DNA of 64,000 nt from a phage. A model generated the notes under the pieces. That model made no database searches, was not told the DNA's origin, and saw only the letters and a list, made by a program, of their open reading frames with translations. A program made the position numbers and the translations under genes. Below, piece by piece: positions 3,000-61,097 of this stretch. Location of the stretch: the sequence record NC_094493.1. One strand, given 5' to 3'. Position 1 is the stretch's first letter. Each line of letters begins with the position of its first letter.

Positions 3000-3013
3000 A
3001 TCTGGAGAACACA

Positions 3014-6000
3014 ATGCTTCCAATCCCTTTGCTAAAACTTGGTCGTCATTTCCTCGATAAGAGGGGTGGAATTAAGGAACTTGCTGTTCTGTCATACCCA
3101 ATAGACAACAGTGATGGTACAAGCAACACAGTATCCTATGTAAATAGCTTAGCTATACTTTTTGATGATGGTCAGCTTAATATTACTGGCTATAATAGGT
3201 TCGGAGAGTGTCGGACTGGAGATCTTGATACAATAAACTATCCTAATGAGGCAGCTTGGAACGTAGACCATGTTTGGAGAGCTGACCGTGCATTTGTAAT
3301 CCGCACATTCGATAATAAATTTTTCTATATTGGTTGCACAGCTGGTCTTATCGGATCGGAGGCAGCAGGTGGAAACGATGTTTGTGTCAGAGAGTGGACA
3401 CCTTTGCCGGAACAGATCGTAACAGGGTTGCATTTGGACACCCATCCTGAGAGACTTGTTGAAGTAATGGGTGGCGTAAACAATACAGTGTGGGTAATTG
3501 CTGCACCAGAGGCTGATGGTATGCTTCACCTGTACGGCTCTGGCAACAATACTTACGGCTCTCTTCATGTTGACAAAAATCAGCATGCAACCCCTGTAAA
3601 GATTGGTGAGACATCGGAAAATCCTGAAACAGGTCCTTGGAAAAACCCAAGCATCAACTGCGAGGTGCATGACAACTCTGTTATTTTCGGTGGTCCTAGA
3701 GGTTTCTGGATTGCTGGATACGACTTTCTGAGAAATAACAGTAGAAACGACCTTGTTTGGCCTCCTGTGCAGATTACTCGTAACGATTTGAGGGGCATTC
3801 CTGCAGATGAGGAGTGGAAAGGGTTTATGTGCGGTCCTAACGGGGCAATAATTGCCACACAGAGGATGCATAGACCCGATGACCAGCAGCTTGTTAACGT
3901 ATTTTATGGTCAAAACATTTGGGGAGATGATACATGGCGGGAACTGAATATCACCTACACCCATGAGGTAATAATGGCTCGTGGGTACGGCACAAGTGGC
4001 ATTTTCTTCAATAATGGCACCAAGCAGTATCGTGGATTCTCTCGCAACTTGTGTAATGATATTGGTGCACAATCTGCAAACAATAGTCCTAGGTCCGATT
4101 TTATCCACTATCAAGCTCTTGCTACAGCTAAATATGTTGAGCAACGCCTGCCAGTTAGCTGGACAGAGAGTGTTTATTTCCAAGGCATCCATAGAGAAGG
4201 TTTCTTAGGGACCTTTACTGTTGTTAATGGTAAACTTTGGTGGTCAGGCATCCCAAGGGGAAGTTTTGCAGGCTCTAACAACCTGTTTGGAGGCAGACTT
4301 AATAGCCAGGGGTTCACAGAGATTCCGGAGAATTGGTATAAAAATGTCCCGGTAGATAGCTGGGGTATCGAAGACATCTTTGATGTCAATGGTGTGAGCA
4401 ATGTTAGCAACATTTACATCGGAGATACTGTCAAGATGAAATTGAAACCTCAGCCGGAGGGTGCTACGTTCATTATTGACAAGATTGAGTTGGTAAATGC
4501 TACAGGCACTGTTGTTACAGATGCAAACTATCAGTTCTCCACTAACTGGAACCATGGTGGTGCTAACGAAGTTGTGGTCACCCAGTATAACCGTAACATC
4601 AACAGACGTGGTTTGTATTCTATCAAGATCACCTACCATGACAAGCATGGCACTGGAAGAACCTATACGACAAGGACTTTGAACTGGAACACTATAGTTC
4701 CTGCGTATCCGTCCAACGGCAAGTGGCATACCGTTGGTAGAAACAAGCAGTTCCATGTTAACGATACTGTATACTTTGGGCTGAATGGGACCCAGCCTGC
4801 AGTAGAAGGGGATACATCGTATATGGTCAGACTCCACAGAATGGATGCTGGATCAGTCACTTATGATGTGACCCAAGAGATCTACGATCAAAGACGCGCC
4901 ACGTATGACAATATTGTAAAAACACAAGCCTTGTGGGAGTTCAATCCTAATGGCAAGGGTGGTAAAATGTTGCAGGTTAATGAGCAGAACGGAACGTCGT
5001 TGACTGTCCACGAACACCAAGACCCTTGGCCTGATCCTGGAAAACCTCACCCTGGCGCTCGTACACTGAAAATTGTCAGCCATGATGTAGGATATTTCGG
5101 AATACGCTGGGAAGCTACAGTAAGATATGCCGACGGGACAACAAACAACATAGGGATCACTCTTGGTGGCACTAGTGAGGATAACTCACTGAAAATTGCC
5201 TACACTCCTAGAGGCATCTCTATTGACAATATGGATGTTGTTCGCAACGGTTACGGCGATGTGAATGTCAAAGTTACTCTTGGCGAACATCTTGGTGGGG
5301 AAAGGATCATCATGTATGCCTTTGATCATGATCCGCGCACCAATGGGACTTATGCAAATCAGGCATGGAGTTACCTGATAAATGCACCTGAGCCAAATAC
5401 TAAAGAGTTCTACTATGGTATGAAGCGAGATGTGTGCAAGAAAACAGGAACACATGATTGGATTGCTATCTGCGTTAAAGATGAGCGCACAGCTTGGGAT
5501 GAGCCTGTTAACAGATGGTTCATAGGTATTCCTACCAGAAGTGATAAGTATGTCGCAGAATATATTGTATGCATGGGCGGTACCAACCTAAACATGTGTT
5601 GGAACGAAGATGTAAACAAATACTCTGATTATGACTATATGAGGGATTACTCTTGTAATTTGTGGTTTAACCAAACTACAGGTTACCCTCCGCGTCAGGC
5701 AAGGGTAAATCCTGCAATCTTTACAGATACGCAGGTTTTCTTGACAAAACAGGCCAACGAGGTCCAGACCTTCAAGAACAAATACGACCCTAATAAGTGG
5801 TTCTATAACTGCTATGGGGCATTTTTCTGGGGACCTGGAGAATTACCTGGTGGTGGCTCTTGTTTTGAGGCTGCAACTTACGCCAGTGACAGATTTATGG
5901 GCCAGGTCAAGAAATACAAGATAATTCCAGGGCCTGAAACTTTAGGTAACGCTGTCGACCCCTATATCATCATGAGTGATCTAAGATCGAACATGGATGG

Positions 6001-13107: not shown

Positions 13108-14589
13108 TTACTTAGCGTACTCGATTAATTCCACAGTTTTACCAAAGCTAGGGATATAATTTTTATTATACCCTTCGGTTAGAACCCATAAAGTATCGTA
13201 CTTTTTCCACTTGTTGTCAACAGCCTTTTGTTCAAAGTTATGCTCAAAGTATAGGTCGGTCAGGACGATGACATCTTTTGCATTTGGTATGTTGGCATCC
13301 AGATACTCGAACACGCAAGCAGCTGTTGTTCCCCATGTTGAGTGGACCTCATAGTTGATCATTTCGTCTATGTTGCCGCGAGTGTATACTTTAACCTCCC
13401 CAACCTCAGTTGACCAACAGAACATTGTAACCTTAAATTCTTTATACAGATTGCACAATCCGGTTATTTCATTGAACATTTTCTTTAAAGTTCTTTGAGA
13501 GATCGAGCCAGAAACGTCTAAAGCTACAACAATATCTATGGTGTTTTCCGGATTACGACCGGGAACAATAACGTGCTGGTTCTTGTTTATAGCCCCAACT
13601 TTTCGCATTGTGCTGGTCAAAGACCCAGATCGGCGACCAGGTTTTCTGTAGGTCAGTTCAGCCTTTCGTTTAGACAACATGCGTTGCTTAATGATGTCTA
13701 TATAGTTGATTACAGGCTTACCCCTGTTCTTGACAAACTCACGCACCGCCTCAGGGCAACGACCTCCGGAAGCTTGCATTGCTGCTTCCAGCATGTCACC
13801 AGAGTCTTGCATGGCCTGATCTTTATCAGATTGGCTGATTACAGGTTGTGGCTGATCATACCCCATAGCCTTTCCAAGATCATCGCTGGTGCCACCGTTG
13901 CCGCTCATGTGATCATCGGTTTGTCGCTTATCTCCTTGAGAATTCTCACCTTTGCCGCTCTTACTTTTACCGTTATTCTGATCTCTTTGCTTATCAAGAA
14001 CTGCATAGACGTTCTCAGCAATCCATCCATGAAACTTCATGTCGCAGTAGCAACTAGCTAAGAAGCCAAAAGGCTTACCTTTTACGAACTCAGTGCTTTT
14101 CCCCTTTGGGAAGAAAACACAAGGAGGCTTGCTAAAGTCAACCACAAGACCTGTGTTGATAACGTGATCACAAGCAATATTGAACAGTTCCGGCTCAAAG
14201 CTTTTACCACGGACCAGATGATCACAGATAATATGCCCCACCTCATGTGACAGAAGAAAGGCCACCTCTTTCACAGATTTTGGGGAATAGAAAACCTCAG
14301 CCATCTCAAACTGCTTGTCAGTCAGAGATGCTTTAAGAATGGTTTTACGCTCATCCGCCAACCCCATAATGAACTCAGGGCTGTAGTAGATGCGTTTATG
14401 GTCGGTTGCCATGGTGGAGCACCATGTGTGGTTTTCTACGAACTGCAACCCTGACAGCAGTGTGCCATAAAACGGCAGCTTTTCAAGGAGATACATACGT
14501 GCAGCCTGCAACATTCTCAGGGCATCATCTTTCTGTGAGGCAATGATTTCTGAACTTCTGCTATCCATTAAAACTCCAGAAGGGGCCAT
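13108..14589 (-). CDS. vWA-domain protein with N-terminal HExxH metallopeptidase-like domain (MoxR-partner type)
   Basis: HEVGHIICDH (HExxH) near the N-terminus and a von Willebrand A MIDAS-like VVALDVSGSIS motif further on; 493 aa; ATG confirmed. Confidence 0.75.
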   Translation of the reverse strand: MAPSGVLMDSRSSEIIASQKDDALRMLQAARMYLLEKLPFYGTLLSGLQFVENHTWCSTMATDHKRIYYSPEFIMGLADERKTILKASLTDKQFEMAEVFYSPKSVKEVAFLLSHEVGHIICDHLVRGKSFEPELFNIACDHVINTGLVVDFSKPPCVFFPKGKSTEFVKGKPFGFLASCYCDMKFHGWIAENVYAVLDKQRDQNNGKSKSGKGENSQGDKRQTDDHMSGNGGTSDDLGKAMGYDQPQPVISQSDKDQAMQDSGDMLEAAMQASGGRCPEAVREFVKNRGKPVINYIDIIKQRMLSKRKAELTYRKPGRRSGSLTSTMRKVGAINKNQHVIVPGRNPENTIDIVVALDVSGSISQRTLKKMFNEITGLCNLYKEFKVTMFCWSTEVGEVKVYTRGNIDEMINYEVHSTWGTTAACVFEYLDANIPNAKDVIVLTDLYFEHNFEQKAVDNKWKKYDTLWVLTEGYNKNYIPSFGKTVELIEYAK

Positions 14590-14601
14590 TGGCCCCTGTC
14601 A

Positions 14602-15642
14602 TTATTTAACGTGTTTGAAAATACCTGCCAACTCGGTCATTGTCATGCGGGTGGTCTTCATAAGATCTGTCATAGCTTTCTCCATAATTGGAGATACTAC
14701 CATAAAGTTTCCTTTAGTGAAACCCTTATTCCAGTCGGTCACCAACAGTGGTTTAAGTCCAGCTCCGAGACGTTCACCAGTTAAAGCACAGCATTTGCGA
14801 ATATACGAACTCTTAAATTGGCTGAACGACAGATCAACTTTCATACCTGCATCGTAGAACGTTTGACAATAGAAAGTGTAAGCCTTAGCAATCTCAACAT
14901 CATCAGGCAGTGCAGGAACCTCTTCTGCAATCCCCTCTTCGACCTCCTGAGGCTCTTTTTCCTCTTCAGAGTTCTGTTCTTCAACTTCTTCTGTCACAGT
15001 CTCGTTCACGATGTCTGAAATGTGTTTGTTGGCTGCACGATCAGCCATGAAATTTTTAAAGTCCTGCATTGGTGACATATCTTCTTCCTCTTCGTCAAAT
15101 AGTGCTAGTTTATCTTCTTCTGTCCCGTATTGCAAGATGAAATCTTCAAAAGTATAATCACCTTTCAATTTCTCCATACGCTCTTCGCTCAGGTGGAGCA
15201 TCATCTGCTGGACAATTTTTCGATCAGTTTTGTCTTTAATCAGGATTGCAGTCTTTTTATCTACCAGACAGTCTTTCAGAGCATTGCACCTCAACCCTAC
15301 CACACAACAATTATCAATTGCGTAAGGACCTTCATCATCTATCCGCTCCAGAGATGGGTAGAAAGGATTTCCCAGTCCGTTTTCATCTGTGTGCATGTCG
15401 AAAGGTATAAGAGTGTAGTCGCATACCCCCTCCCCTAAAAGTTTTTTACCAAATAGGAGGTATTCTTCCCATGACAGGTCGAACTCTATATCTCGTTTCC
15501 GTGCGTTATTCTGTTTGCGTCTATATTTTTTGAGCAAGCGCTCTAACTCTTCTGGTGTATAATATTTTTCAAGATTCATGAGTTGTCTCTCGTGCTCTGT
15601 AAGTGAAGAAATCGTATCAATTGTCTTAACAGATGTCAACAT
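14602..15642 (-). CDS. hypothetical protein with duplicated Cys-containing motif and acidic linker (possible HNH-like nuclease)
   Basis: 347-aa ORF; two related segments (KRDIEFDLSWEEY...GVCDYT and AKAYTFYCQTF...KCCALTGERL) plus ERIDDEGPYAIDNCCVVGLRCNALK; ORF track starts at TTG 15645, ATG at 15642 used here. Confidence 0.55.
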   Translation of the reverse strand: MLTSVKTIDTISSLTEHERQLMNLEKYYTPEELERLLKKYRRKQNNARKRDIEFDLSWEEYLLFGKKLLGEGVCDYTLIPFDMHTDENGLGNPFYPSLERIDDEGPYAIDNCCVVGLRCNALKDCLVDKKTAILIKDKTDRKIVQQMMLHLSEERMEKLKGDYTFEDFILQYGTEEDKLALFDEEEEDMSPMQDFKNFMADRAANKHISDIVNETVTEEVEEQNSEEEKEPQEVEEGIAEEVPALPDDVEIAKAYTFYCQTFYDAGMKVDLSFSQFKSSYIRKCCALTGERLGAGLKPLLVTDWNKGFTKGNFMVVSPIMEKAMTDLMKTTRMTMTELAGIFKHVK

Positions 15643-22330: not shown

Positions 22331-23536
22331 ATGATTTTCATCTACGAACATTTCAAAACTCGTAAAGAAGCACGCGACCGCCGTGCAGAACTTGAGAAGA
22401 AGGGTTTCACATGTGCCATTGAGAAAGGTGACACAACCTGGACACTGGCAGTGGGTGCCCCAGAATTGTTCGATCCTGACCGTGACAGCGTCTGCTACAC
22501 CCGTGAGGATTTTGAAACCCGTGAAGAGGCCCGTCTATTTCGATATGGGCTGGAAGATAACGGTAAGTACGCCATGATCTTAGACTTAGGCGAAGGTTCC
22601 GTTAAACGTTGGAGCGTGATATACCCACTGTGTGTTGTTCACGGTGTGGGGTTCACCGGGGTGGCAATCAAGTCAGAAGAACCTTTAGTAGAAGTCAAAG
22701 ACCCGGTGCTGGAGGTGGTGAGCAGTGTGTCTCAGCAACAGACTCGAAGCATCGAGCCTTTAGTAGTTATTTGTGGGGAACTCCTCCAGATCACCTGCAA
22801 CGAAGGCATTTTTGAAATTCGCCGCAGCGAAAGTGAGGAAGTTTACCAGAAAGTCTTCGACCATATCTCTGTTCAGGAATATGATGAGGCAATTGGTGAA
22901 ATCCTTGTCTGGCTGGAACGCAAGAATGAGTTCACCACACTTGCAGACAACCTGATCATGAAAGATGGTAAGCTCTACTACTACGGTGTAGAGATGCGAT
23001 CCACCATTGCAAAGAAAATTGAGAAAGACTATGCAGACGGAACACTGGATGACCGCTATGTGAAATTCCTCGTTCGCCTGCTACGCAATCCTTCTGCAAA
23101 ATCTGTAAACATGCTCTACGATTTTATGCAGGCCAACGATATCCAGATTGCAGAAGATGGTCGAATCATTTGCTACAAAGGGGTTCAGTTTAACGGCAGC
23201 AAGTGGGTGGATTGGCACAGTGGTAAAGTTCCACAATACCAGGGTGCTTTTGTATCCATGCCTCGTAACTTTGTAGAGGATGATCCTGAAGCTGCGTGCT
23301 CCTATGGCTTACACTGCGCCAGCAAGGAGTATGCAAAGAGCTACGGCACTGTAATGACTGTCATGGTTGACCCTGCAGATGTGGTTAGTGTGCCATACCA
23401 ACACAATAGCGCTAAGTGCCGTGCCTGCCGCTATGAGATTGTGGTAGCTCCGGAAGCACGCAAGGACGGAGACCCGATTGAATACGTGGTTGACCGAGAC
23501 GGTAACACTATCGACATTCTTTACGAGGAGGCGTAA
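22331..23536 (+). CDS. hypothetical protein, possible rIIB-like partner
   Basis: 401-aa ORF with AAGGAGA RBS directly downstream of the rIIA-like gene; assignment by synteny only. Confidence 0.45.
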   Translation: MIFIYEHFKTRKEARDRRAELEKKGFTCAIEKGDTTWTLAVGAPELFDPDRDSVCYTREDFETREEARLFRYGLEDNGKYAMILDLGEGSVKRWSVIYPLCVVHGVGFTGVAIKSEEPLVEVKDPVLEVVSSVSQQQTRSIEPLVVICGELLQITCNEGIFEIRRSESEEVYQKVFDHISVQEYDEAIGEILVWLERKNEFTTLADNLIMKDGKLYYYGVEMRSTIAKKIEKDYADGTLDDRYVKFLVRLLRNPSAKSVNMLYDFMQANDIQIAEDGRIICYKGVQFNGSKWVDWHSGKVPQYQGAFVSMPRNFVEDDPEAACSYGLHCASKEYAKSYGTVMTVMVDPADVVSVPYQHNSAKCRACRYEIVVAPEARKDGDPIEYVVDRDGNTIDILYEEA

Positions 23537-24906
23537 TGGAAAAAGGGCAGTATGATGTAGGCACAGATGCTGCCCTCGTTGCAATCATGAGCGGTGAGAA
23601 TGTCTTCGTTTCAGGACCCGCAGGTTGTGGGAAGACGTACCTCATCAACATGATCCAGTCAATGTATGGAGACTCTTGCATAACGGTTGCCCCGACAGGG
23701 GTAGCCGCTTTAAACGTTAATGGAGCAACAGCACACCGAACCTTCGATCTTGCAGCAGGTGTGAGCATGGAGTCAGACTGGACCGCAATAAGGGCAAAAA
23801 CAGCAAAGCCTTTGAAAAGCAAGGCATTTACCATCCTAATTATCGATGAAATCTCTATGATCCGTGCTGATAAGTTTATAGAGATGGATAGGAAACTCCG
23901 CTTCCTTCGAAAAAATGACAAACCTTTCGGAGGCATACAGGTCATATTGTTTGGCGATTTTTACCAGGCACCTCCTGTTGTCTCTTCTATGGAGAAGGAA
24001 GCCTACTTCAACTTCTACCATACGGACCTGTGTTGCTACACCGAATCTTGGAAAGAGCTTGACCTCCACAACATAGCCCTAATAGATCAGTTCCGACAGG
24101 AGTCTATTCGATTTGCCACAATGCTCAACTGTGTTCGCGAGGGTCGTCGCATAAAAGAGGTTGTAGCAGAACTTAATGCTCGCTGTTACAAAGGTGGTGT
24201 ACCAACAGATGCTCTCACAATTTGCGCCACCAACAAACAAGCAGAGGAAGTAAACAGAAGGTTCTATGATGCCATCAACGCCCCAGAGAAGGTATACACT
24301 GGTGAAATGAAGGGTAAGTTTCCCTCCACCCTGCCAGTTGAGCAGGAGATGAAGTTGAAAATTGGCATGAAAGTTATGATAACCGCCAACGATGTTGACC
24401 CGACGCACAAAGTACCTTATTATGTTAACGGAACACGTGCCACAATTGTTAAATTTAAGAACAAGGCGGTGGTGGTAGAGCTTGAAGATGGAACACAGGT
24501 TGACATAGAGCAGAGGTTGTGGGAGAATAACGAGTATAAGCCCTCTCAGAGATACAACATTGCAGAAAGGAAGATGGAGAAGTTTATAGAGAGGGTAGTG
24601 ATTGGGTCATACAAGCAACTTCCTCTGAAATCTGGGTACGCCGTAACATCTCATAAAAGTCAAGGACTTACGCTAGATTGTTACAACCTAGACCTTGGAA
24701 AGAACGGAGCTTTCTCTCCTGGGATGACGTATGTCGCTTTGAGTAGAGTTAAGACAATACAAGGAATAAACTTGTTGCGTCCACTAAGAGAAGTTGACAT
24801 TATTGTTGACCCGCGAGTCGTAGAGTTTTACAATACAACATTCCCTGACTTAGACAAAATTGTCAGGAAAGATTTTGAAACCAGAGCAGAAGAGGGGGAC
24901 GTATGA
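23536..24906 (+). CDS. SF1 Pif1/RecD/Dda-like DNA helicase
   Basis: Walker A GPAGCGKTY, Walker B ILIIDEISM, GDFYQAPPV, TSHKSQGLT and YVALSRVKT motifs; ATG overlaps upstream stop (TAATG). Confidence 0.8.
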   Translation: MEKGQYDVGTDAALVAIMSGENVFVSGPAGCGKTYLINMIQSMYGDSCITVAPTGVAALNVNGATAHRTFDLAAGVSMESDWTAIRAKTAKPLKSKAFTILIIDEISMIRADKFIEMDRKLRFLRKNDKPFGGIQVILFGDFYQAPPVVSSMEKEAYFNFYHTDLCCYTESWKELDLHNIALIDQFRQESIRFATMLNCVREGRRIKEVVAELNARCYKGGVPTDALTICATNKQAEEVNRRFYDAINAPEKVYTGEMKGKFPSTLPVEQEMKLKIGMKVMITANDVDPTHKVPYYVNGTRATIVKFKNKAVVVELEDGTQVDIEQRLWENNEYKPSQRYNIAERKMEKFIERVVIGSYKQLPLKSGYAVTSHKSQGLTLDCYNLDLGKNGAFSPGMTYVALSRVKTIQGINLLRPLREVDIIVDPRVVEFYNTTFPDLDKIVRKDFETRAEEGDV

Positions 24907-30782: not shown

Positions 30783-33206
30783 ATGAGTATGTGGTCTTTC
30801 GATCTGGAGGCCTCCGGGCTTTTGGAAGATCTAGATCTTTATTATCACTGCGGTCTGTTTAAAGAGCTGAATAAGAACCGTTTTATGCTGTTCCTTCCTC
30901 TAAATGACCGCACACACTACTCCGAGGAGGATATAGAGAAGGCTAAGAACTTTATTCTGGCAAAGAAAACTCTTTATAAAGATTTTGAAGTTCGCATAGC
31001 AGATTTTTCGGAGTTGGAAGGTTGGCTTACAGGCAATTCCGACTGGTCACCAACAGCTTTGAACTGCCATAACTGCTACAGTTATGACTTTATGCTGATG
31101 GAAAGATTATCCGGTATTCATTTTGACATGTTCCGTGATCCTAAATGCATGGGTACTATCAACGACCACCAGGTTAACCTGTTTGATACGTTGGCGATGA
31201 GTCGAATCTTGTGGCCTGATCGCCCTTTACCAAAAGGTTGTCCGGACTCTGTATTCAACCCGGTCACTAAGAAAATGCAGCCTGTTGGTCCTCACGGCCT
31301 TATGGCATGGGGCTATGCTCTTGGTAACCAGAAAGTTCAAATTGATGACTGGCGCGATCTTCCGTTGTGGAAGTATGTGGATCGTGTATTTGAGGACGTT
31401 ATCATCCAGGAGCTGCTCTGGAAAGAACTGGTAGCGGAATCAAAAGGTGTATTCTACGGCAAGTCTGACATGCAGAACTTTATGTACGATCCTGCCAAAG
31501 AGAAGCCGAAAGGGTTCAAGAAGATCACCTGGAAGAACGCATTACGCCGAGGCATGCTGCAGCACTTCCTGATGGAGCTGCAGGCCCGTCAGGGTGTGTA
31601 TTTCGACATAGATGGAGCTATTGCTTTACGTGACCGTTGCGATGCGTGGATGAAAGAAATCGCTGATCGTGTTGAACCACAACTGCCTTTAAAAGAGCTG
31701 TCAATGTCTCAGCGGCCCAAGTTCCCTGAAAAGCCGTTTAACCAAGACGGGACAATCTCTAATAATGGTTGGAAATGGTTAAAAGATAAGCTTGGCTATC
31801 CTGTAGACATGAGCGCTCTAGAGTTCAAAGCCCCGCCTAAGAGAGCATTTACCTCCACAGGAGATGTCAGTAAGATGGGGATAAAATGGTGTGAAGAGAT
31901 GGGCTGCAAAGACCCCGATAAGATGGCTGATTTCTTGAGAGGCTATATTAAGGGCACCTCAACACCACAACCTTTACCTAAAGAGCTAATGGATCAGGCA
32001 ATAAGCGATCTGCAGCAGAAGCGAATGCCTGACTGCAAGATACCTATGAAAATCAGCAATCAGGACGACATTAAGCGATACCTGATCAGTGCTGGTTGGC
32101 TTCCGACAATGTGGAGAACTAAGGATGTAACTAAAGACAGCAAGAAGAAAGCTCTACCTGATGCAGATGTTGATGCACGAGTATATGCATACATGGACGA
32201 GCTTTTAGAGTCAGAGTATTGTGACCTAATTATCAACTTCTGGAACAAAACTGATGCTAAGTTTCAGACAACAGTGCACAAGTTCCGAAGCTTTCCTAAC
32301 TCCGAAAGGATTAAAAAGGAAGTATTCGGGAAAATACGTAGAAAAGCTAGGGCACTTATTACTTCTCCGCAACTGAAAGATACGTTTGGACACCTATGTC
32401 CGAATCTTGAAAAATTGAACGGAGAGATGGCTAAGGATATCGTCTTGTGGTTATCCTTGCGAAACCGCAGATCGGTCCTTGATCCAATCAAGGAGGATAA
32501 GGTTGATACTGGTCTTCTTAATCACCCACGCTTGAAGATTGACCATAAGCTTCCTGCTAAAAGCTCCGGATTAACAAACACTTCCAGACAGAAACACAGC
32601 ATTTGTGCAAACATGCCTAAACCCTCTCCTAAAGTGGTTATGGGTAAGGAGATGCGTAGCTTGTGGGGTGTTCCTCCTGGATACTTTGAGATCGGTATTG
32701 ACGGGTCCAACTTAGAGCAGCTTATCGGGGCTTGGGGTGCCTTTGAGTTCGACAACGGCTTGTATTATGATGTTGTAAGTAACGGGGACGCACACCAAAA
32801 CAATGCTGAGGCATATACAAAAGTAGCAGGCAGAGAGGTGTCTCGTAACGACGGTAAACCTATCACGTATGGGGTTATGTACGGGGCACAAAAAGATAAA
32901 GTTGCAGATATGCTGGACATCTCTCCAGAGTTGGGACAAAGGGTAATCGATGCACTCTGGGATGCCAACCCTGGTCTTAAGGGGCGCAAAGAGGATCTGG
33001 AGAAATTCTGGGAAGCAACAGGTAAGAAGTTTATCTACTCTTTTGATGGTCATGCTATCTGGACCCGATCTAAACACTCTTTACTTAATGCATACCAACA
33101 GAATGGTGGTGCATCGCTGTGTGACTTGGTTGGGATACTTATGCACCACCAAATGGTGAAGCGTGGGTGGTACGATGAAGGTGTTCGTCGTATTATTTAT
33201 TACCAT
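30783..33206 (+). CDS. family A (T7-like) DNA polymerase, exon 1
   Basis: 3'-5' exonuclease Exo I FDLEASG; motif A IDGSNLEQL; motif B RNDGKPITYGVMYGAQ; reading frame stops 1 codon after ...IIYYH, exactly where motif C (HDE) should continue. Confidence 0.85.
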
Positions 33207-33482
33207 AAATAACATTGTGGCTTCATAGAGTAATCTATGTCGAATAACCTCTTTAACTGCGGGAAGCCTAAACCTTATGGCAAGGTAATCCGCAACGAAG
33301 CGCTCAAAAGAGCGAACGCTCAGAGGCCATTCCGAAAGGAAGTAGACCAGCAAGTGCGGTCGAAATGGGAGGATTCCTGTGGTTGCTTATCATAGGAATA
33401 TGAGATGGTCCGATCCTACGTGAAAACGTATGGCTATGCACGTAATGGTGCGGGGTAGCTTAACGACCTACCTGAACTATTG
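33207..33482 (+). ncRNA. putative group I self-splicing intron (no ORF) interrupting the DNA polymerase
   Basis: 276 nt between ...YYH and DEYQLQV...; 5' exon ends in U and intervening sequence ends in G; P-like AACTGCGGGAAG (33255), Q-like AATCCGCAACG (33287), R-like GTAGACCAG (33342) and S-like GAGATGGTCC (33402) elements; candidate guide GTGG at 33217. Confidence 0.7.
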
Positions 33483-33836
33483 GATGAGTACCAACTTCAA
33501 GTGCCTGACACACCGAAGTATAAGACTGTGTACACCTTCGACACAATTGAAGAACTGGAAGCATTTAAGGCAGAGCAGGAAGCCAAACTTCATGTGTTCG
33601 ACGGTCATAAGTACAAAAAGGCACGCAAGGATGAGGACGGAAACGAAGTGGTTGACAGAGACGGAAACACGGTGTACGATCCTATCCTGAACGATAACGG
33701 AAAGCTTGAACTTATCTGGAGCCCTGTGGGTGAAATGGTGGTGCATTGCTTCTGGCAAGCTTCTAAAATGATGGGAGTCCCGTTCCAGATCACAGGTGAA
33801 TACTTGTGTGGTAGTAACTGGGGTGATTGTCACTAA
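33483..33836 (+). CDS. family A DNA polymerase, exon 2 (motif C to C-terminus)
   Basis: Begins DEYQLQV (completing H|DE motif C) and ends ...GSNWGDCH with a C-terminal His as in T7 gp5 (from memory); no RBS or ATG of its own. Confidence 0.75.
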   Translation, partial: DEYQLQVPDTPKYKTVYTFDTIEELEAFKAEQEAKLHVFDGHKYKKARKDEDGNEVVDRDGNTVYDPILNDNGKLELIWSPVGEMVVHCFWQASKMMGVPFQITGEYLCGSNWGDCH

Positions 33837-36646: not shown

Positions 36647-37012
36647 ATGGAACAAATGAACGATCAAGCGTCGGTTGCGATGAACGAGCAAGAACAACCT
36701 CAAGAATTTTTCTTAGGGTTAAGTAAAGATCAAGTGTCTCTTCTGCTAGTGCTTTCTTCTTTCATGGGAAGACTTCAGGAGCTCACACAACAGCCAGAGG
36801 CTGAACAATTATTCCAAGCTTTGCGTGAAGAAGAAAAATATCGTCGTTTGGACTATGCCTTAGGTTGGGTAGCTCAACAACGGGATATGCTGATGGCCCT
36901 CTCTGGGACCACAAGTTTTGCAATGGGCCTGTTGGCTCAAGTTCAGGACAAATTAATTCAAGCAGGGTTCGCACACACGGCAAGCACTAACGAAGAACAA
37001 GGAGACAAATAA
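36647..37012 (+). CDS. hypothetical protein (121 aa)
   Basis: ATG after GGAGA RBS; Q/E-rich helical. Confidence 0.5.
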   Translation: MEQMNDQASVAMNEQEQPQEFFLGLSKDQVSLLLVLSSFMGRLQELTQQPEAEQLFQALREEEKYRRLDYALGWVAQQRDMLMALSGTTSFAMGLLAQVQDKLIQAGFAHTASTNEEQGDK

Positions 37013-38238
37013 TGAGCGTTATTCAACAATTCGCTAACCCAATGAATCCGCGTGAAACTGTTTTACTAGCTCACGGCATGATTAAACGTGTTAGCATCAA
37101 GCCTATTAAAGGTGCTGATCCTACAACAGGTATTAAAACCACTGTGTGGCAAGGTAAGAAAATTGAATCCAGCCACACCATCTCTTTACTGATTTCTGAA
37201 CTGGATTCCTCTGATAACCTGCTTCAAGGTGGTGAAGAAGTCTGGATCAGCATGGGTGATAAGCTGCTTAAACCAGGTCATCAAGACTCTGTCTCTGTTA
37301 AGATTGATGACAAGTGGGAAACCGTAACGCCAGGATGGATCGTAAATATCCCTTTGAAGGCAAACGAGCATAACGGTAAGACCTATTACAAGGGCTCACT
37401 GGCTAAGATGGTTAAGCTGGGTGCAGGAGAGGCTCCAGCAGCGACTCAGCAGCAAAAACAGCAACAAGGTGCACAATCACAAGGCCAGAAGCAGAAACCT
37501 CAGCAGAATGCCAATCAGGACGTTTTACGCATCTATGGTGATGTGACTCAGATTGTTGGCAACGTGGTTACTGTTAATGACCACAAGATTGGCGAAGGTG
37601 CTATGGTTGTAACTGATGAGCAGCTTAAAGACCTGGTGGTAGGTGGTCGTGTTGCAGCCATTGTTGACAAAGACACCGGAAACATTATCAGTGGTTTCAA
37701 GGCCTATCCCCCTAAGGCAGAGAACGGCACTCAAGGATCTGGTGGCAAGCGTAAATCCTCTTACGACCCTATCGGTGTGGAAACGGGGCATAGCATCAAT
37801 GCGTTGCAGATCATCCTGGATCGCGGGTTTAAGGTAGACGACCCACTGGGCGTGGCTAAAACACTGCACGTAGTCACCATTGAGCTTAAGAAAGAGTATG
37901 CTCAAGCCACCAACCGAACTGAAGATGAAGTAGGTGCCAGTGTCGGTAATGCGGTGTTGAACGCTTGTCGCCGTATTGACAAGAAAACGAAAGTTGATGA
38001 TTTTGCAGCGGCAATTACTGCAGAAGCAAAAGATGTCTTGACTAATCTGGCTGAACCGTTGTACGATTGGATCAAGAACGGTGCTGGGTCAACCGACCAT
38101 CAAGAACCTCAGGCTGCCAAACAGGAAGCAGCTCCACAGCAAAACACTGTAGACGCTCCTCCTGTAAATGATGCGGAAGATGACCCAATGGATCAGAATC
38201 CAGCACAGTACGCCTTTGATGATGACATCCCTTTTTAA
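37012..38238 (+). CDS. single-stranded DNA-binding protein-like
   Basis: 408 aa; Q-rich linker then acidic tail ending ...AFDDDIPF, identical to the E. coli SSB C-terminal hexapeptide as I recall it; AAGGAGA RBS; sits with replication genes. Confidence 0.6.
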   Translation: MSVIQQFANPMNPRETVLLAHGMIKRVSIKPIKGADPTTGIKTTVWQGKKIESSHTISLLISELDSSDNLLQGGEEVWISMGDKLLKPGHQDSVSVKIDDKWETVTPGWIVNIPLKANEHNGKTYYKGSLAKMVKLGAGEAPAATQQQKQQQGAQSQGQKQKPQQNANQDVLRIYGDVTQIVGNVVTVNDHKIGEGAMVVTDEQLKDLVVGGRVAAIVDKDTGNIISGFKAYPPKAENGTQGSGGKRKSSYDPIGVETGHSINALQIILDRGFKVDDPLGVAKTLHVVTIELKKEYAQATNRTEDEVGASVGNAVLNACRRIDKKTKVDDFAAAITAEAKDVLTNLAEPLYDWIKNGAGSTDHQEPQAAKQEAAPQQNTVDAPPVNDAEDDPMDQNPAQYAFDDDIPF

Positions 38239-38253
38239 CAATTAGTTAACATA

Positions 38254-38282
38254 GCCCTGCCCGAAAGGGTGGGGCATTTTTG
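38254..38282 (+). terminator. intrinsic terminator (copy 2 of the shared hairpin)
   Basis: GCCCTGCCCGAAAGGGTGGGGC followed by ATTTTTG then an AAGGAGA RBS. Confidence 0.65.
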
Positions 38283-38300
38283 TATAAGGAGATCTGAAAA

Positions 38301-38717
38301 ATGACATTAGAAGATATCATTGTTAAACCTGAGAACTATGACCAATACAACCTGTCAACTCAATCTGTAGACCTCGGATGCGCCACAGTCAGTGCATGGC
38401 TGGTTAACGGAAAAGAGCTTGACGAGTGCCTAGAAGCACACATGTCGGTGAATAAATTTCTTGATGAAAATACCCACTGGCTAGAGGGTGCAGGAGTATA
38501 TGCTTCATGGTTGGAGAGTATGGGATTCGACTACCAATCTGAAGAGGGGTGGTGGAGCTATTTAGCTATCTGCCCAGAGACGCTGCAATGCTTCATGAAA
38601 TATTCTGAAGATTTGGAGTACCGGGCGGTGGTTGATAGTGCCATTGCCCGTTATAGCCGTAAACCTTTTTCCCACGACATTAAAACTGTGGAAGAATTTG
38701 TTGAAGTTTTCTGTTGA
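38301..38717 (+). CDS. hypothetical protein (138 aa)
   Basis: ATG after AAGGAGA RBS. Confidence 0.55.
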   Translation: MTLEDIIVKPENYDQYNLSTQSVDLGCATVSAWLVNGKELDECLEAHMSVNKFLDENTHWLEGAGVYASWLESMGFDYQSEEGWWSYLAICPETLQCFMKYSEDLEYRAVVDSAIARYSRKPFSHDIKTVEEFVEVFC

Positions 38718-38813
38718 CACAGGTTGAAAGGTGTGCAATTATAACTTCATATAACGGGAGGACGCGATGAACGAAGAAAACTGGGATGTATAACTAACAG
38801 GAGGCCACTGCCC

Positions 38814-39011
38814 ATGATTTATCGAATCCGTGTAAGAGAAGATGCACCAGGCTGTTACTTTGACTGGCGTGGGTGGTGGTTTCTCCACCCAATGGATGGA
38901 CTCACAGATAGAATGCTGGATGCTGCCCTTTACACAGATACCGACATAGAATATAATCTCTATCTGAAGGACGGTATAGATAACGGCCTGTTTGAAGCAA
39001 TTCCTGTGTAA
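38814..39011 (+). CDS. hypothetical protein (65 aa)
   Basis: ATG after CAGGAGG RBS. Confidence 0.5.
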   Translation: MIYRIRVREDAPGCYFDWRGWWFLHPMDGLTDRMLDAALYTDTDIEYNLYLKDGIDNGLFEAIPV

Positions 39012-39079
39012 GAGACTGTGATAACTATGTTTTATGATCTTCCTGTAGCGCCACCACCTGTTGAACCCGGAGAACTAAG

Positions 39080-39505
39080 ATGATTTATGAAATGCCAAAA
39101 CTGATTCGTGACGATGCCCAAAACGCTCACACCATTATTATGGGCAAACGCATGGATATTATTTGTCATAAAGATTTCTGGGAAGGAAGTTACTTCACAG
39201 AGTATTTTGGTAAACTGGACAATGGTCTGCTGATCCAGTTCTACACCGATGCGGAAAACAATATCTGCTGGGAGTTCGAAACTGAAGATATCCATAAACT
39301 TTTCACCTTCCTCGGTATTAAGGTTGAGGCCAAGTTTGAAGAAGGTGAGTGCGACGATTGTGGATTCTACGAGGTAACAGATTTCTACCTCCCGAGCGGT
39401 GAGAACCTTTACTATGAAAGCCACTTCGGTAACTCCAATATGCCACAGTGCTGGACTGAGTTTTTTGAAATTGCGGAAGAGGAGCTGGCATACCGTGATT
39501 ATTGA
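39080..39505 (+). CDS. hypothetical acidic protein (141 aa)
   Basis: ATG after CGGAGA RBS. Confidence 0.5.
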   Translation: MIYEMPKLIRDDAQNAHTIIMGKRMDIICHKDFWEGSYFTEYFGKLDNGLLIQFYTDAENNICWEFETEDIHKLFTFLGIKVEAKFEEGECDDCGFYEVTDFYLPSGENLYYESHFGNSNMPQCWTEFFEIAEEELAYRDY

Positions 39506-39953
39506 TACTGTAGGGGGAGATCTAATCTCTCTTTTCAAGAAAGGGTCGGGCCACATGATCCACGGTTGTAACTGCTTTCACACAATGGGTGCAGGCATAG
39601 CGAAAGACATTGCCCGTGAGTTCCCTCAAGCACTGGCAGCCGACAAAGAGACTGCTTATGGTAATCTAGACAAGCTGGGTATGTTTTCTTGTTGGGAGCA
39701 TTTTGCCAAGAACAGGGTCGTATATGGAATCAACCTGTATACCCAGTTCTACCCAGGGCCCAATGCTGAATACTTCTCAATCATGAAAGGTTTTGAGCGA
39801 GTCAACGAGGTATTCAAAGGTGTGTCATTGCCGTTCTACATTCCTAAAATCGGATGCGGTATTGGCGGTCTAAAGTGGGAACATGTAGAAGATGTAATTA
39901 ATCTTGCAACCACAGATATTGATGTGGTTGTAGTAGAGTACAAAAAGTGTTGA
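39495..39953 (+). CDS. macro-domain protein (putative ADP-ribose binding/hydrolase)
   Basis: HGCNCFHTMGAGIAKDIA (like the macro-domain N..N...G.GVA motif) and IPKIGCGIGGL (like G.GI.G) at the expected spacing; start ambiguous (GTG 39495 overlapping upstream stop, or ATG 39555). Confidence 0.6.
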   Translation: MIIDTVGGDLISLFKKGSGHMIHGCNCFHTMGAGIAKDIAREFPQALAADKETAYGNLDKLGMFSCWEHFAKNRVVYGINLYTQFYPGPNAEYFSIMKGFERVNEVFKGVSLPFYIPKIGCGIGGLKWEHVEDVINLATTDIDVVVVEYKKC

Positions 39954-39978
39954 CGACCATCTTCTGAGGTGATATAGT
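39950..39978 (+). promoter_or_regulatory. sigma70-type promoter
   Basis: TTGACG, 17-nt spacer, TATAGT, followed by a TCTCCACA...TGTGGAGA hairpin. Confidence 0.5.
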
Positions 39979-40204
39979 CTCCACAACAACTAAGAGAGGA
40001 GAGCACTGTGGAGACTAAAATCTTAATTCTTGCTGTGGTAGATACAACCGAAGGAGCTATATTCGAATCTGCAGGAGGGTATTTCTACCTACCATACGGA
40101 AAAAGAACTTCCGAGCCAAGTAAAGATTCAATCCGCAAAGTGTTCCCGTGTGCTTTCTGGCTGGAGATTTTGGTATAAGATTGCAGAGGATTTGGGAGAG
40201 AATT

Positions 40205-40399
40205 ATGAGAAACAAGAAAGAGCTTTACTCTGGTGAGTGGATCAACGATCAACAGGTGGGAGAGGTAACCTGCTTCCGATGTTTTACCAGGTACAATCTT
40301 AAAACTGCACCAAAAAGTGTTCCAAAGACTGATGGTTATTACATAAAAGAACCTTATTGCCCAAAATGTAAATGCCGATTATACTGGAGTAACCTGTAA
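40205..40399 (+). CDS. small zinc-ribbon protein
   Basis: ATG after GGGAGAG RBS; CxxC...CxxC (CFRCF...CPKCKC); ORF-track start 40148 trimmed. Confidence 0.5.
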   Translation: MRNKKELYSGEWINDQQVGEVTCFRCFTRYNLKTAPKSVPKTDGYYIKEPYCPKCKCRLYWSNL

Positions 40400-40403
40400 A
40401 AGA

Positions 40404-40431
40404 TTGACATCTGAAAACTGCAGTGTATAAT
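40404..40431 (+). promoter_or_regulatory. consensus sigma70 promoter
   Basis: TTGACA, 16-nt spacer, TATAAT (both hexamers consensus) upstream of the ATG at 40463. Confidence 0.65.
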
Positions 40432-40462
40432 ATATGCATAAACTAACAGAGAGTGATGTATT

Positions 40463-40654
40463 ATGGTAATTTTTAACCGGGATGGTATCATAGTTAGACA
40501 GCACCCGTTCCTTGAATACTATCAAATTGAGCAATGGTGCTACGGGGATTGCAGTCACTCCTATGGGCAAAGTTGGGGATATCGTACAGTTTTTGAATCC
40601 ACAGACCTTGACAAAGTAAGACAGAAAGTTTTAGAACTTATTAACAACAAGTGA
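40463..40654 (+). CDS. hypothetical protein (63 aa)
   Basis: ATG after GAGAG; downstream of the consensus promoter. Confidence 0.5.
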   Translation: MVIFNRDGIIVRQHPFLEYYQIEQWCYGDCSHSYGQSWGYRTVFESTDLDKVRQKVLELINNK

Positions 40655-40661
40655 GTATGAT

Positions 40662-40994
40662 ATGGTAACATTAGAAAGACGTAAAGCTATCGCCGCCACA
40701 CTGGCAGACATCTTTTGGGAGTGCAATTTAAAAGATACTAGATATTGTGGCGCATCTGTAGATGCATTGTTCCCACGGCCTACTATTGTTGCAATGGGCA
40801 ACCTGCTCGATGTGGTATATGGAGCATGGGACAAGGAAGGTGGATTCTATATCTGGCAACCTGACTACGGGACTTGGAAAGAGGTTAGTGGTTCTTCGGA
40901 CTTCACTCCTGCAGTGGCTAAAATGGATGGCTGGAAAATCTATGTCGGTAACGACATGGAACTGAAAGGCGAAATTGTTTACTGGTTACCTTAA
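40662..40994 (+). CDS. hypothetical protein (110 aa)
   Basis: Co-oriented ORF. Confidence 0.5.
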   Translation: MVTLERRKAIAATLADIFWECNLKDTRYCGASVDALFPRPTIVAMGNLLDVVYGAWDKEGGFYIWQPDYGTWKEVSGSSDFTPAVAKMDGWKIYVGNDMELKGEIVYWLP

Positions 40995-41015
40995 GAAAGT
41001 CCAGGAGATAAAGTT

Positions 41016-41261
41016 ATGAACAAAGGGTGGACATTTGTAGACGGCGTTAAAAACATGCCTCTAGGAAAGTATATTGTAGCCATGGCAGATGAGAATGGCA
41101 ATGTGGATTTCGGAGCTTGCGAGGTTGTTCTTGCAGGATCTGGTAACTATGTGGACAAAACCGGGATAATTAACGGTCAGTTCTACTTTGATCACAACCC
41201 TGTTGTAGCGTATATGGCTATGCCAGAGTTCAAGTTCCCAAAGGAGGGTGCAGATGTTTAA
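41016..41261 (+). CDS. hypothetical protein (81 aa)
   Basis: ATG after CAGGAGA RBS. Confidence 0.55.
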   Translation: MNKGWTFVDGVKNMPLGKYIVAMADENGNVDFGACEVVLAGSGNYVDKTGIINGQFYFDHNPVVAYMAMPEFKFPKEGADV

Positions 41262-41451
41262 GCTTAAATCTGCATGGAACATCGCTGTGGGGGACGAGAT
41301 CCGTATCCCAGGTGGAAAGACCATTATGAAGATATCTCGTATCGAGTACGAAGGTGATCGTGTATTTCATATCTTTGCAGAGGATGGTCGAGAAATTTAT
41401 ATACAGGCAGGCTCTCACATCTATATTCGTAAGAAAGGGGACGACAAATGA
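41248..41451 (+). CDS. hypothetical protein (67 aa)
   Basis: Overlaps upstream gene end; GGAGGG upstream. Confidence 0.45.
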   Translation: MQMFKLKSAWNIAVGDEIRIPGGKTIMKISRIEYEGDRVFHIFAEDGREIYIQAGSHIYIRKKGDDK

Positions 41452-41777
41452 CAGAGATCATCATTTCAACTGCAGGGTATGTGTTCCTGACAATCATTGC
41501 ACTGACCATTCTGGTGGTGGTATATGGAATTGTTATTCTCCCTATTCTTGAGACAATTAGTTTGTGTCGGTGTTGGAGAAAGGCTTACGGTCCACAGCCG
41601 TGGAAGGACTGGCCCCACCTGGTGCACATAGCGTTCTCTTATGCTTATGATCACGCCAGCAGTGCATGCATAACCGGGTATCACGCCCACAACTGGAGCT
41701 GGGAAGGGTTGAGGAAATGGAATGTTACAAAGACCATACCTCTGCGCATGTACAAACCTAAAAACAAAGACAGCTGA
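41448..41777 (+). CDS. hypothetical membrane protein
   Basis: 4-nt overlap with upstream gene; N-terminal hydrophobic helix IISTAGYVFLTIIALTILVVVYGIVILPIL. Confidence 0.5.
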   Translation: MTEIIISTAGYVFLTIIALTILVVVYGIVILPILETISLCRCWRKAYGPQPWKDWPHLVHIAFSYAYDHASSACITGYHAHNWSWEGLRKWNVTKTIPLRMYKPKNKDS

Positions 41778-42088
41778 TACTTGAAAATTCCTGGCATATC
41801 AAGTATAAGGGGGATTTCTAAAATGGATTTCCTCCTTTTGATATTTCACCGGGCCGGATATTTTAAAATTCTTAGAAAATCAGAAAATGGATCGAAAACT
41901 AAAATGGATTTTTCAGAGTAGGCGCGACAAGCTGAATAACTCATCCTATCGTTTGCACCATATTCCAGGCCACCATTATAGATTTCCCACACATGCTAAC
42001 CTCCCTCTACTAGAACTTCCTCCACTTACCCTTGACCTTCTATGGTAACAATCTAACCACTATCTTGAAGTTGCGGTGCAGCTTTCCA

Positions 42089-60779: not shown

Positions 60780-61097
60780 TCATTCTCCAAAGTCAATCTT
60801 TACTTTGCCTTTCCCCTTACCTTTCTTTCCACCACATTTAGCCAGCTGACGTGCTGCAACATCTACCATACGGTCAGTTGCCTCGTAAGCATCACTGCCT
60901 TTAGCTTTGGCAATAACTTCTTTTCCAGAATTGTCAAAAATGAACGCCATAACTTCCTGGTGATCATTTTCAACTTTTACACTCACACGTGCATAGTTGG
61001 CAGAGGGGTGCAAACGCTCCAGCTTAGACATTTTGTGGGAAATGAAAGACACCATACCTTCAGTGATTTCTACGTTGCCAGTGATTTCAATTTGCAT
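60780..61097 (-). CDS. hpf: ribosome hibernation promoting factor / RaiA-family protein
   Basis: MQIEITGNVEITEGM...KLE...VKVEN...KGSDAYEATDRMVDVAARQLAK lines up with E. coli HPF (MQLNITGNNVEITEAL...KLE...LKVEK...EGQDMYAAIDGLIDKLARQLTK, from memory); ATG confirmed with AGGAA RBS; Lys/Gly-rich tail. Confidence 0.8.
   Translation of the reverse strand: MQIEITGNVEITEGMVSFISHKMSKLERLHPSANYARVSVKVENDHQEVMAFIFDNSGKEVIAKAKGSDAYEATDRMVDVAARQLAKCGGKKGKGKGKVKIDFGE

Follow-up and report, generated by a model that had tools for sequence, protein, structure and literature searches.

Why does a phage carry a small, stand-alone macrodomain gene, and on which ADP-ribosylated molecule might its product act? 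The question is raised by a gene at 39495..39953 of phage record NC_094493.1, of which we analyzed a stretch of 64,000 nucleotides (nt; hereafter the window), part of a genome of about 137 kb. Over the 5 kb surrounding the gene, the window shares 95-99% identity with those of more than 100 genomes of Vequintavirus (rV5-like phages), e.g., V5, FFH2, Murica, JLBYU08, and several BASEL phages. A first-pass annotation made from the letters of the sequence had called the product a macrodomain protein and proposed that it counters host defenses based on ADP-ribosylation. We found that the gene encodes a macrodomain of the ALC1-like class related to Tk.4 of the T-even phages. Judged by its relatives, it is rather probable that the protein removes the ADP-ribose (ADPr) that DarT2 attaches to thymine in phage DNA.

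An Intact Gene for an ALC1-Like Macrodomain

The coding sequence (CDS) is intact, comprising 152 codons plus stop, with a GTG start and a TGA stop (39951-39953), and its translation from GTG 39495 reads V/M-IIDTVGGDLISLFKKGSGHMIHGCNCFHTMGAGIAKDIA...FYIPKIGCGIGGLKWE...EYKKC*. Two checks that the first-pass annotation had put forward, a profile search for the Macro domain and a structure prediction, both bore out its call. The Pfam profile PF01661 (Macro) matched the protein with 25.9 bits, above its gathering score of 22 (E = 1e-5), with only profile positions 1-32 aligned, and the phage family phrog_335 matched over the full length (residues 1-151, E = 1.2e-59). Database homologues numbered 265, and tblastn gave matches in 2740 phage records. 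An AlphaFold2 model calculated from a 66-sequence alignment was confident (predicted local distance difference test, pLDDT, 94.9; predicted template modeling score, pTM, 0.90) and displayed the three-layer alpha/beta/alpha macro fold with both glycine (Gly)-rich ADP-ribose-binding loops. The two motifs quoted by the annotation, HGCNCFHTMGAGIAKDIA and IPKIGCGIGGL, are present exactly as given (Table 1). Because all these results, together with a low ratio of nonsynonymous to synonymous substitution rates (dN/dS, see below), point the same way, a chance match is excluded.

The best Foldseek matches of the model were TARG1, Taq DarG, and Poa1p; with Poa1p, the window protein shares a His-x-Cys-Asn-Cys segment in addition to the similarity in fold. 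A profile of the family compared with PDB sequences matched BT1257, SCO6735, DarG, TARG1, and Poa1p with E values of 6e-15 to 5e-12, and because of these matches the protein belongs to the ALC1-like class (TARG1/DarG/SCO6735/Poa1p) rather than to the MacroD, PARG, or viral nsP3 types. Fold and class are thereby established. The identification as a macrodomain is correct, yet it is not new, because several near-identical Vequintavirus records already carry such labels for the gene: "putative macro domain-containing protein", "macro domain protein", "tk.4: phosphatase", or "Poa1p-like family protein".

The Window Protein Is No DarG

DarG models were the sole matches in two curated bacterial model libraries (PADLOC DarG, E = 1.5e-12; NCBIfam antitoxin_DarG, NF048014, E = 1.2e-11), which makes the DarG macrodomain (DarTG2; PDB 5m3i, 5m31, 7omu) the sole curated bacterial family matched. 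The same chemistry would be expected of both proteins, the removal of ADPr from thymine in single-stranded DNA (ssDNA). The window protein is nevertheless no DarG, because four features that define DarG fail. It scored 44.5 bits where the equivalog cutoff of NF048014 is 250. The matches spanned only the macrodomain third of the two models (profile positions 8-144 of 338 and 9-143 of 329, respectively), and the window protein, with 152 amino acids (aa) vs. about 330-340, has no counterpart of the DarT-binding C-terminal domain. The catalytic lysine (Lys) 80 of DarG is replaced by glutamine (Gln) 84. Finally, no darT lies next to the window gene, the neighbors of which are small phage open reading frames (ORFs). 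A Pfam sweep of the window for partner enzymes, covering the 66 ORFs that encode 90 aa or more (E ≤ 1e-3), found no DarT, ADP-ribosyltransferase (ART), NADAR, Tpt1, or NAD-salvage family. AdfB of phage ICP1 was also considered as a relative and was rejected, being a DarT binder rather than a macrodomain.

Catalytic Residues of the Gln Type

In the profile alignments, Q84 takes the place of the catalytic Lys of DarG (Lys80) and TARG1 (Lys84), and it aligns with Gln85, which is essential in SCO6735, and with the corresponding Gln of BT1257; G124 occupies the place of the catalytic aspartate (Asp) 125 of TARG1. Together with Q84, the residues N26, H23, G120, and G122 align with Gln85, asparagine (Asn) 27, histidine (His) 24, Gly126, and Gly128 of SCO6735. 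The combination that marks the SCO6735 type, a Gln at the DarG Lys80/TARG1 Lys84 position plus a conserved Asn, is thus present as Q84 and N26. Conservation was counted in a 122-sequence alignment consisting of the query, PhiKZ gp104, and 120 homologues: Q84 was found in 119 of 122 sequences, N26 in 120, H23 in 118, and G120 in 120, and the sole Lys at the Q84 position was that of PhiKZ gp104. P117, G120, and G122 were invariant in the homologue alignment. These counts establish that the catalytic residues of SCO6735 are conserved in the family.

SCO6735 of Streptomyces coelicolor (PDB 5e3b) and BT1257 of Bacteroides (2afc/2fg1) are, like the window protein, orphan ALC1-like proteins of the Gln type; they share with it the Gln at the catalytic position and the equivalents of the Asn, the His, and two Gly, at an identity of only about 22-25%. 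SCO6735 is a cellular protein and the window protein a viral one, but both genes stand unpaired with darT, and a Pelagimonas gene homologous to that of the window is likewise an orphan, situated among housekeeping genes with no darT nearby. SCO6735 does without the Lys and Asp residues of TARG1 and DarG, cleaves thymidine-linked ADPr (dT-ADPr) placed by DarT on ssDNA, and shields Streptomyces from DarT (PMC9411070). On DarT-made dT-ADPr ssDNA, its Q85A mutant was inactive and its N27S mutant almost lost hydrolysis; Asn27 locks Gln85 in a rotamer that contacts the distal ribose (PMC9411070).

Relatives in Other Phages

Essentially all T-even-like phages encode full-length relatives at 39-46% identity (tblastn). 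Tk.4 of T6 aligns with the window protein over its full length (153 columns) at 39% identity (E = 6e-43), and both proteins fall into phrog_335 (E = 1e-59 for the window protein and 1e-64 for T6 Tk.4), which establishes the homology. The T6 copy is tk.4 because it is located between vs and tk.3/tk.2, and it is the syntenic orthologue of T4 tk.4. Like the window protein, T-even Tk.4 is a stand-alone macrodomain of about 150 aa, and the motifs HGCNCFHTM..., NLYTQ, and IGxGIG are common to both. The two differ in origin, with T-even Tk.4 coming from Tequatrovirus and the window protein from Vequintavirus, a different phage family, and in neighborhood, with the window gene following a gene for a single-stranded-DNA-binding (SSB)-like protein and several small ORFs, whereas T-even tk.4 lies between vs and tk.3.

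The function of T4 tk.4 has been addressed genetically. In a HIDEN-SEQ experiment in which a DarTG2 host was infected with a T4 transposon library, only tk.4 came out as significant, and a clean tk.4 knock-out was DarTG2-sensitive; the authors of this preprint named the gene adfM and inferred enzymatic removal of ADPr from DNA (10.1101/2025.11.20.689424). The gene is otherwise non-essential in T4. Among the Vequintavirus phages of the BASEL collection, Bas54 also has a HIDEN-SEQ library. In an earlier paper, T4 without AdfA and AdfN stayed DarTG2-resistant, and a further factor was predicted (PMC11825919).

A second phage macrodomain, PhiKZ gp104, has also been called AdfM; it takes DarT2-made ADPr off DNA in vitro and protects against DarTG2 (PMC13309987). 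It resembles the window protein as a stand-alone phage macrodomain in phrog_335, but the identity is only 22% (E = 1e-4), it is imported into the phage nucleus, and it is of the Lys type, with PTK where the window protein has YTQ. Judged from these alignments, phages use both catalytic variants, since gp104 is of the Lys type and the window protein of the Gln type, the latter being the variant that the window protein and T-even Tk.4 have in common. The name AdfM consequently stands for two non-orthologous phage macrodomains, T4 Tk.4 (Gln-type, bioRxiv 2025.11.20.689424) and PhiKZ gp104 (Lys-type, Cell Rep 2026, PMC13309987). Moreover, some Vequintavirinae encode a NADAR anti-DarTG1 enzyme (PMC11825919), so that DarT systems do exert selection on this phage group.

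Divergent Alleles of the Macrodomain Gene

Compared with phage LL12, a member of the same species, the flanks of the gene were 94-98% identical at the nt level in most 150-nt bins, and identity fell to 73-85% across 39495-40094, a sharp island of divergence. Within the macrodomain gene, the two Vequintavirus alleles (window vs. LL12) had a synonymous divergence (dS) of about 1.0 and a dN/dS of about 0.11-0.12, which indicates purifying selection on the macrodomain. Since a dS of this size stands within such similar flanks, the sequences are best read as an old, divergent allele that was exchanged by recombination. Both allele classes are common, with 45 records in the tblastn band of at least 90% and 62 in the band of 80-90%. 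The LL12-type allele is 82% identical to that of the window and has K33, and the protein of the BASEL phage Bas59, also a Vequintavirus, is 97% identical to the window protein.

The T4-like Krischvirus vB_EcoM_G37-3 carries a macro gene near regB and tk (3001..3456 of the retrieved stretch), the product of which is 68% identical to the window protein. Because this copy is closer to the window protein than is Tk.4 of T2, T4, and T6 (39%), the comparison suggests that the macrodomain gene has been exchanged between phage families.

Putative Function and Alternatives

Our favored reading, with moderate confidence, is that the protein enzymatically undoes the ADP-ribosylation of thymine by DarT2 in phage ssDNA, through a Gln/Asn mechanism like that of SCO6735. 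The counter-defense against DarT-like DNA ADP-ribosylation proposed in the first-pass annotation matches the report on AdfM (T4 Tk.4) and fits the Gln/Asn pair of SCO6735; that the window protein acts on dT-ADPr DNA and protects against DarTG2 is what we infer from its relatives. In the proposed mechanism, the two Gly-rich loops would bind the ADPr moiety and Gln84, held by Asn26, would position the distal ribose. Water would then cleave the N-glycosidic link between ADPr and thymine on DarT2-modified single-stranded phage DNA. Replication and packaging would thus be restored and the abortive-infection defense of DarTG2 defeated. Direct inhibition of DarT may act as a supplement, as catalytically dead SCO6735 inhibits DarT in vitro (PMC9411070).

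Fold and class, the homology to Tk.4, the catalytic residues, the precedents of gp104 and NADAR, and purifying selection support the reversal of DarT2 modification. Several points weigh against it. The anti-DarTG2 phenotype has been seen only for tk.4 of T4, not for a Vequintavirus copy, and only 39% of the residues are identical in T-even Tk.4; the T4 evidence comes from a preprint and is genetic only, and published biochemistry has been reported for no phage macrodomain of the Gln type. The window protein has no DarT-binding C-terminal domain, and the DNA-positioning Lys34 and Lys89 of SCO6735 and its extended mobile loop are not conserved: A33 stands at the position of Lys34, and the loop after Q84, which bears Lys89 in SCO6735, lacks a lysine and is shorter by about 5 residues. 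In addition, ALC1-like enzymes also act on protein glutamate (Glu)-ADPr, O-acetyl-ADPr, and ADPr-1''-phosphate, so that the substrate cannot be told from the macro fold alone.

The protein could accordingly be a general de-ADP-ribosylase with ADP-ribosylated proteins (targets of host or phage ARTs) or RNA (CmdT-type mRNA) as its substrate instead of thymine-ADPr DNA, which we regard as unlikely. TARG1 (human TARG1/OARD1, like yeast Poa1p a eukaryotic enzyme; substrates, protein Glu-ADPr and Appr-1''-p) is among the best structural matches, SCO6735 strips ADPr from auto-modified PARP1, again in a Gln85-dependent manner (PMC9411070), and E. coli has a defense that ADP-ribosylates mRNA (PMC11618068). 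However, the Lys84/Asp125 dyad with which TARG1 cleaves Glu-ADPr is replaced by Q84/G124 in the window protein. The sweep of the 66 ORFs of the window detected no ART family, and the sole phenotype reported for a homologue is DarTG2-specific. The paper on CmdTAC, which we considered as support for a phage macrodomain countermeasure, was rejected as such because it names none for phages (PMC11618068).

The presence of two alleles with a dS of about 1 within 94-98% identical flanks of one Vequintavirus species would also be accounted for if Tk.4-type Gln macrodomains had wider or different targets, such as other ADP-ribosylated nucleic acids or the inhibition of certain DarT variants by binding, and if the two diverged alleles matched different host ADP-ribosyltransferases; this appears rather improbable. 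Improbable, too, is a small-molecule enzyme, an ADP-ribose-1''-phosphate phosphatase or O-acetyl-ADP-ribose deacetylase in the metabolism of nucleotides or NAD by-products, as the labels "phosphatase" and "Poa1p-like" imply. The "phosphatase" label in PHROG and GenBank was transferred by homology, no Tpt1/KptA, sirtuin, or NAD-salvage family was detected among the 66 ORFs swept in the window, and the DarTG2 phenotype of the T4 tk.4 deletion would go unexplained. Neutralization of ADPr-derived immune signals such as the His-ADPR or gcADPR of Thoeris by a sponge or hydrolase, the option of NAD-derived signaling in the first-pass annotation, is very improbable, given no specific likeness to ThsA-type macro domains, nearest relatives that are all glycohydrolases of the DarG/TARG1/SCO6735 class, and no report linking Tk.4-type proteins to Thoeris.

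If the reversal of DarT2 modification by the window protein is confirmed, rV5-like phages will join those known to carry an enzymatic anti-DarT2 factor, and the Gln type of SCO6735, not the Lys type of DarG, will be the variant widely used by Tk.4-type phage macrodomains; all 120 database homologues examined were assigned to the Gln type. The rV5-like phages infect a broad range of hosts and are frequent candidates for therapy and biocontrol, and confirmation would also aid the prediction of their host range on DarTG2-positive E. coli. The gain is incremental, because near-identical genomes already annotate a macro domain and the T4 relative has been characterized genetically.

Start Codon of the Macrodomain Gene

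The program-made list of ORFs opens the macrodomain frame earlier, at 39399. GTG 39495 is nevertheless the credible start because it is preceded by a Shine-Dalgarno sequence, GAGGAG, because residue 1 is already part of the similarity to T6 Tk.4, because the Krischvirus homologue has an ATG at the matching codon (giving MIIDTV), and because JLBYU08 and LL12 are annotated with the same GTG and 152 aa; the LL12 record also has a ribosome-binding site at the place equivalent to GAGGAG. In the MiataMamis record, the gene is annotated from an internal ATG, which yields 122 aa and loses the first beta-strand, so that the annotated starts conflict between two records, MiataMamis (ATG) and JLBYU08 (GTG), with identical macrodomain proteins. 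A reverse-strand ORF that overlaps the gene (39032-39556, 174 aa) was set aside, as nothing supports it, and an Rfam scan of the macrodomain locus found no RNA element.

Genomic Context

The macrodomain gene shares its strand with the replication genes for a primase/helicase, a family A polymerase, and the SSB-like protein, and it stands where these give way to a long array of small ORFs with no known function. JLBYU08 annotates the SSB-like gene as a putative ssDNA-binding protein; the protein had no Pfam hit and belongs to phrog_4477, a family of unknown function. The first-pass annotation had argued from the position of the gene, just after the SSB and polymerase genes, that it protects replicating DNA. 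This argument is weak. The macrodomain gene starts 1.26 kb past the stop codon of the SSB-like gene, and between them lie three small ORFs, a terminator-like hairpin, and a promoter-like site, the latter two being consensus matches only, and the promoter match no evidence of function (Table 1). In T6 and in the Krischvirus, the homologue is found in the regB-vs-tk region, outside any replication module. The position is not conserved and therefore says little on function.

The ORF directly upstream (39080..39505) overlaps the macrodomain start by 11 nt, for which reason the two are probably co-transcribed and translationally coupled; the macrodomain protein is probably made early, from a small transcription unit of its own. 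With a net charge of about -20, the product of this ORF was considered as a DarT-binding or DNA-mimic partner that had split off from the macrodomain, and the idea was rejected. The protein has no PADLOC DarG match and no similarity to DarG, its only four close homologues are all of Vequintavirus type, its AlphaFold2 model is moderate (pLDDT 75.6), it is unlinked to the macro gene in Krischvirus G37-3, and nearby ORFs are just as acidic.

About 200 nt 3' of the macrodomain gene, with one 56-aa ORF between, lies a small ORF that matches Phage_zn_bind_2 in Pfam (PF23903, E = 1.4e-21) and phrog_4864.

Table 1. Positions of the macrodomain gene, its motifs, and other features (window numbering unless stated otherwise).
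Feature	Position	Strand	Remarks
Macrodomain gene	39495..39953	+	Tk.4/AdfM-type orphan macrodomain
Loop 1, motif HGCNCFHTMGAGIAKDIA	39561..39614	+	H23, N26 = SCO6735 His24, Asn27; G32-A33-G34 phosphate/ribose-binding loop
NLYTQ motif (N80-L-Y-T-Q84)	39732..39746	+	From profile-to-PDB alignments
Loop 2, motif IPKIGCGIGGL	39840..39872	+	Diphosphate-binding loop; G120, G122 = SCO6735 Gly126, Gly128
Shine-Dalgarno GAGGAG	39479..39484	+	10 nt 5' of GTG, read from the sequence
Upstream ORF	39080..39505	+	141 aa, acidic, isoelectric point 4.25; overlaps macrodomain start by 11 nt
Sigma-70-like promoter match TTTACA-17-TATAAT	38929..38957	+	11/12 matches; 5' of the pair of upstream ORF and macrodomain gene; consensus scan only
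Terminator-like GC-rich hairpin with T-run	38254..38275	+	Directly 3' of the SSB-like gene; consensus scan
SSB-like gene (SSB of the first-pass annotation)	37012..38238	+	408 aa, C-terminal tip ...FDDDIPF; from translation
Family A polymerase gene, interrupted	30783..33212 and exon ~33480-33833		ORF plus downstream exon
Group I intron	33197..33432	+	Rfam RF00028
Small ORF with Phage_zn_bind_2 match	40148..40399	+	
S30AE-like ORF	60783..61097	-	105 aa
MiataMamis vs. JLBYU08 macrodomain CDS	23226..23594 vs. 14496..14954		Positions in the retrieved stretches; annotated starts differ

Other Observations in the Window

The family A DNA polymerase gene is split by a group I intron (64.7 bits, gathering threshold 50, E = 4e-14). 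JLBYU08 has two polymerase CDSs annotated there, and MiataMamis has an uninterrupted polymerase gene of 2778 nt.

On the opposite strand, the ORF at 60783..61097 matched the Pfam family Ribosomal_S30AE (E = 1.8e-12 in the window sweep) and is HPF/YfiA-like; a phmmer comparison with E. coli HPF gave E = 1.5e-14. By sequence, it looks like a phage-encoded ribosome-hibernation-like protein.

When the region 37000..42000 was compared with GenBank, 16 records of the MG0656xx series named "Campylobacter phage" (C2, C5, C15, A12a, D1, and others; recorded host, C. jejuni) were recovered, of which "Campylobacter phage" C2 was the best match to the window (99.4%). These records are 95-99% identical to rV5-like phages of E. 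coli, and their C. jejuni host label looks doubtful.
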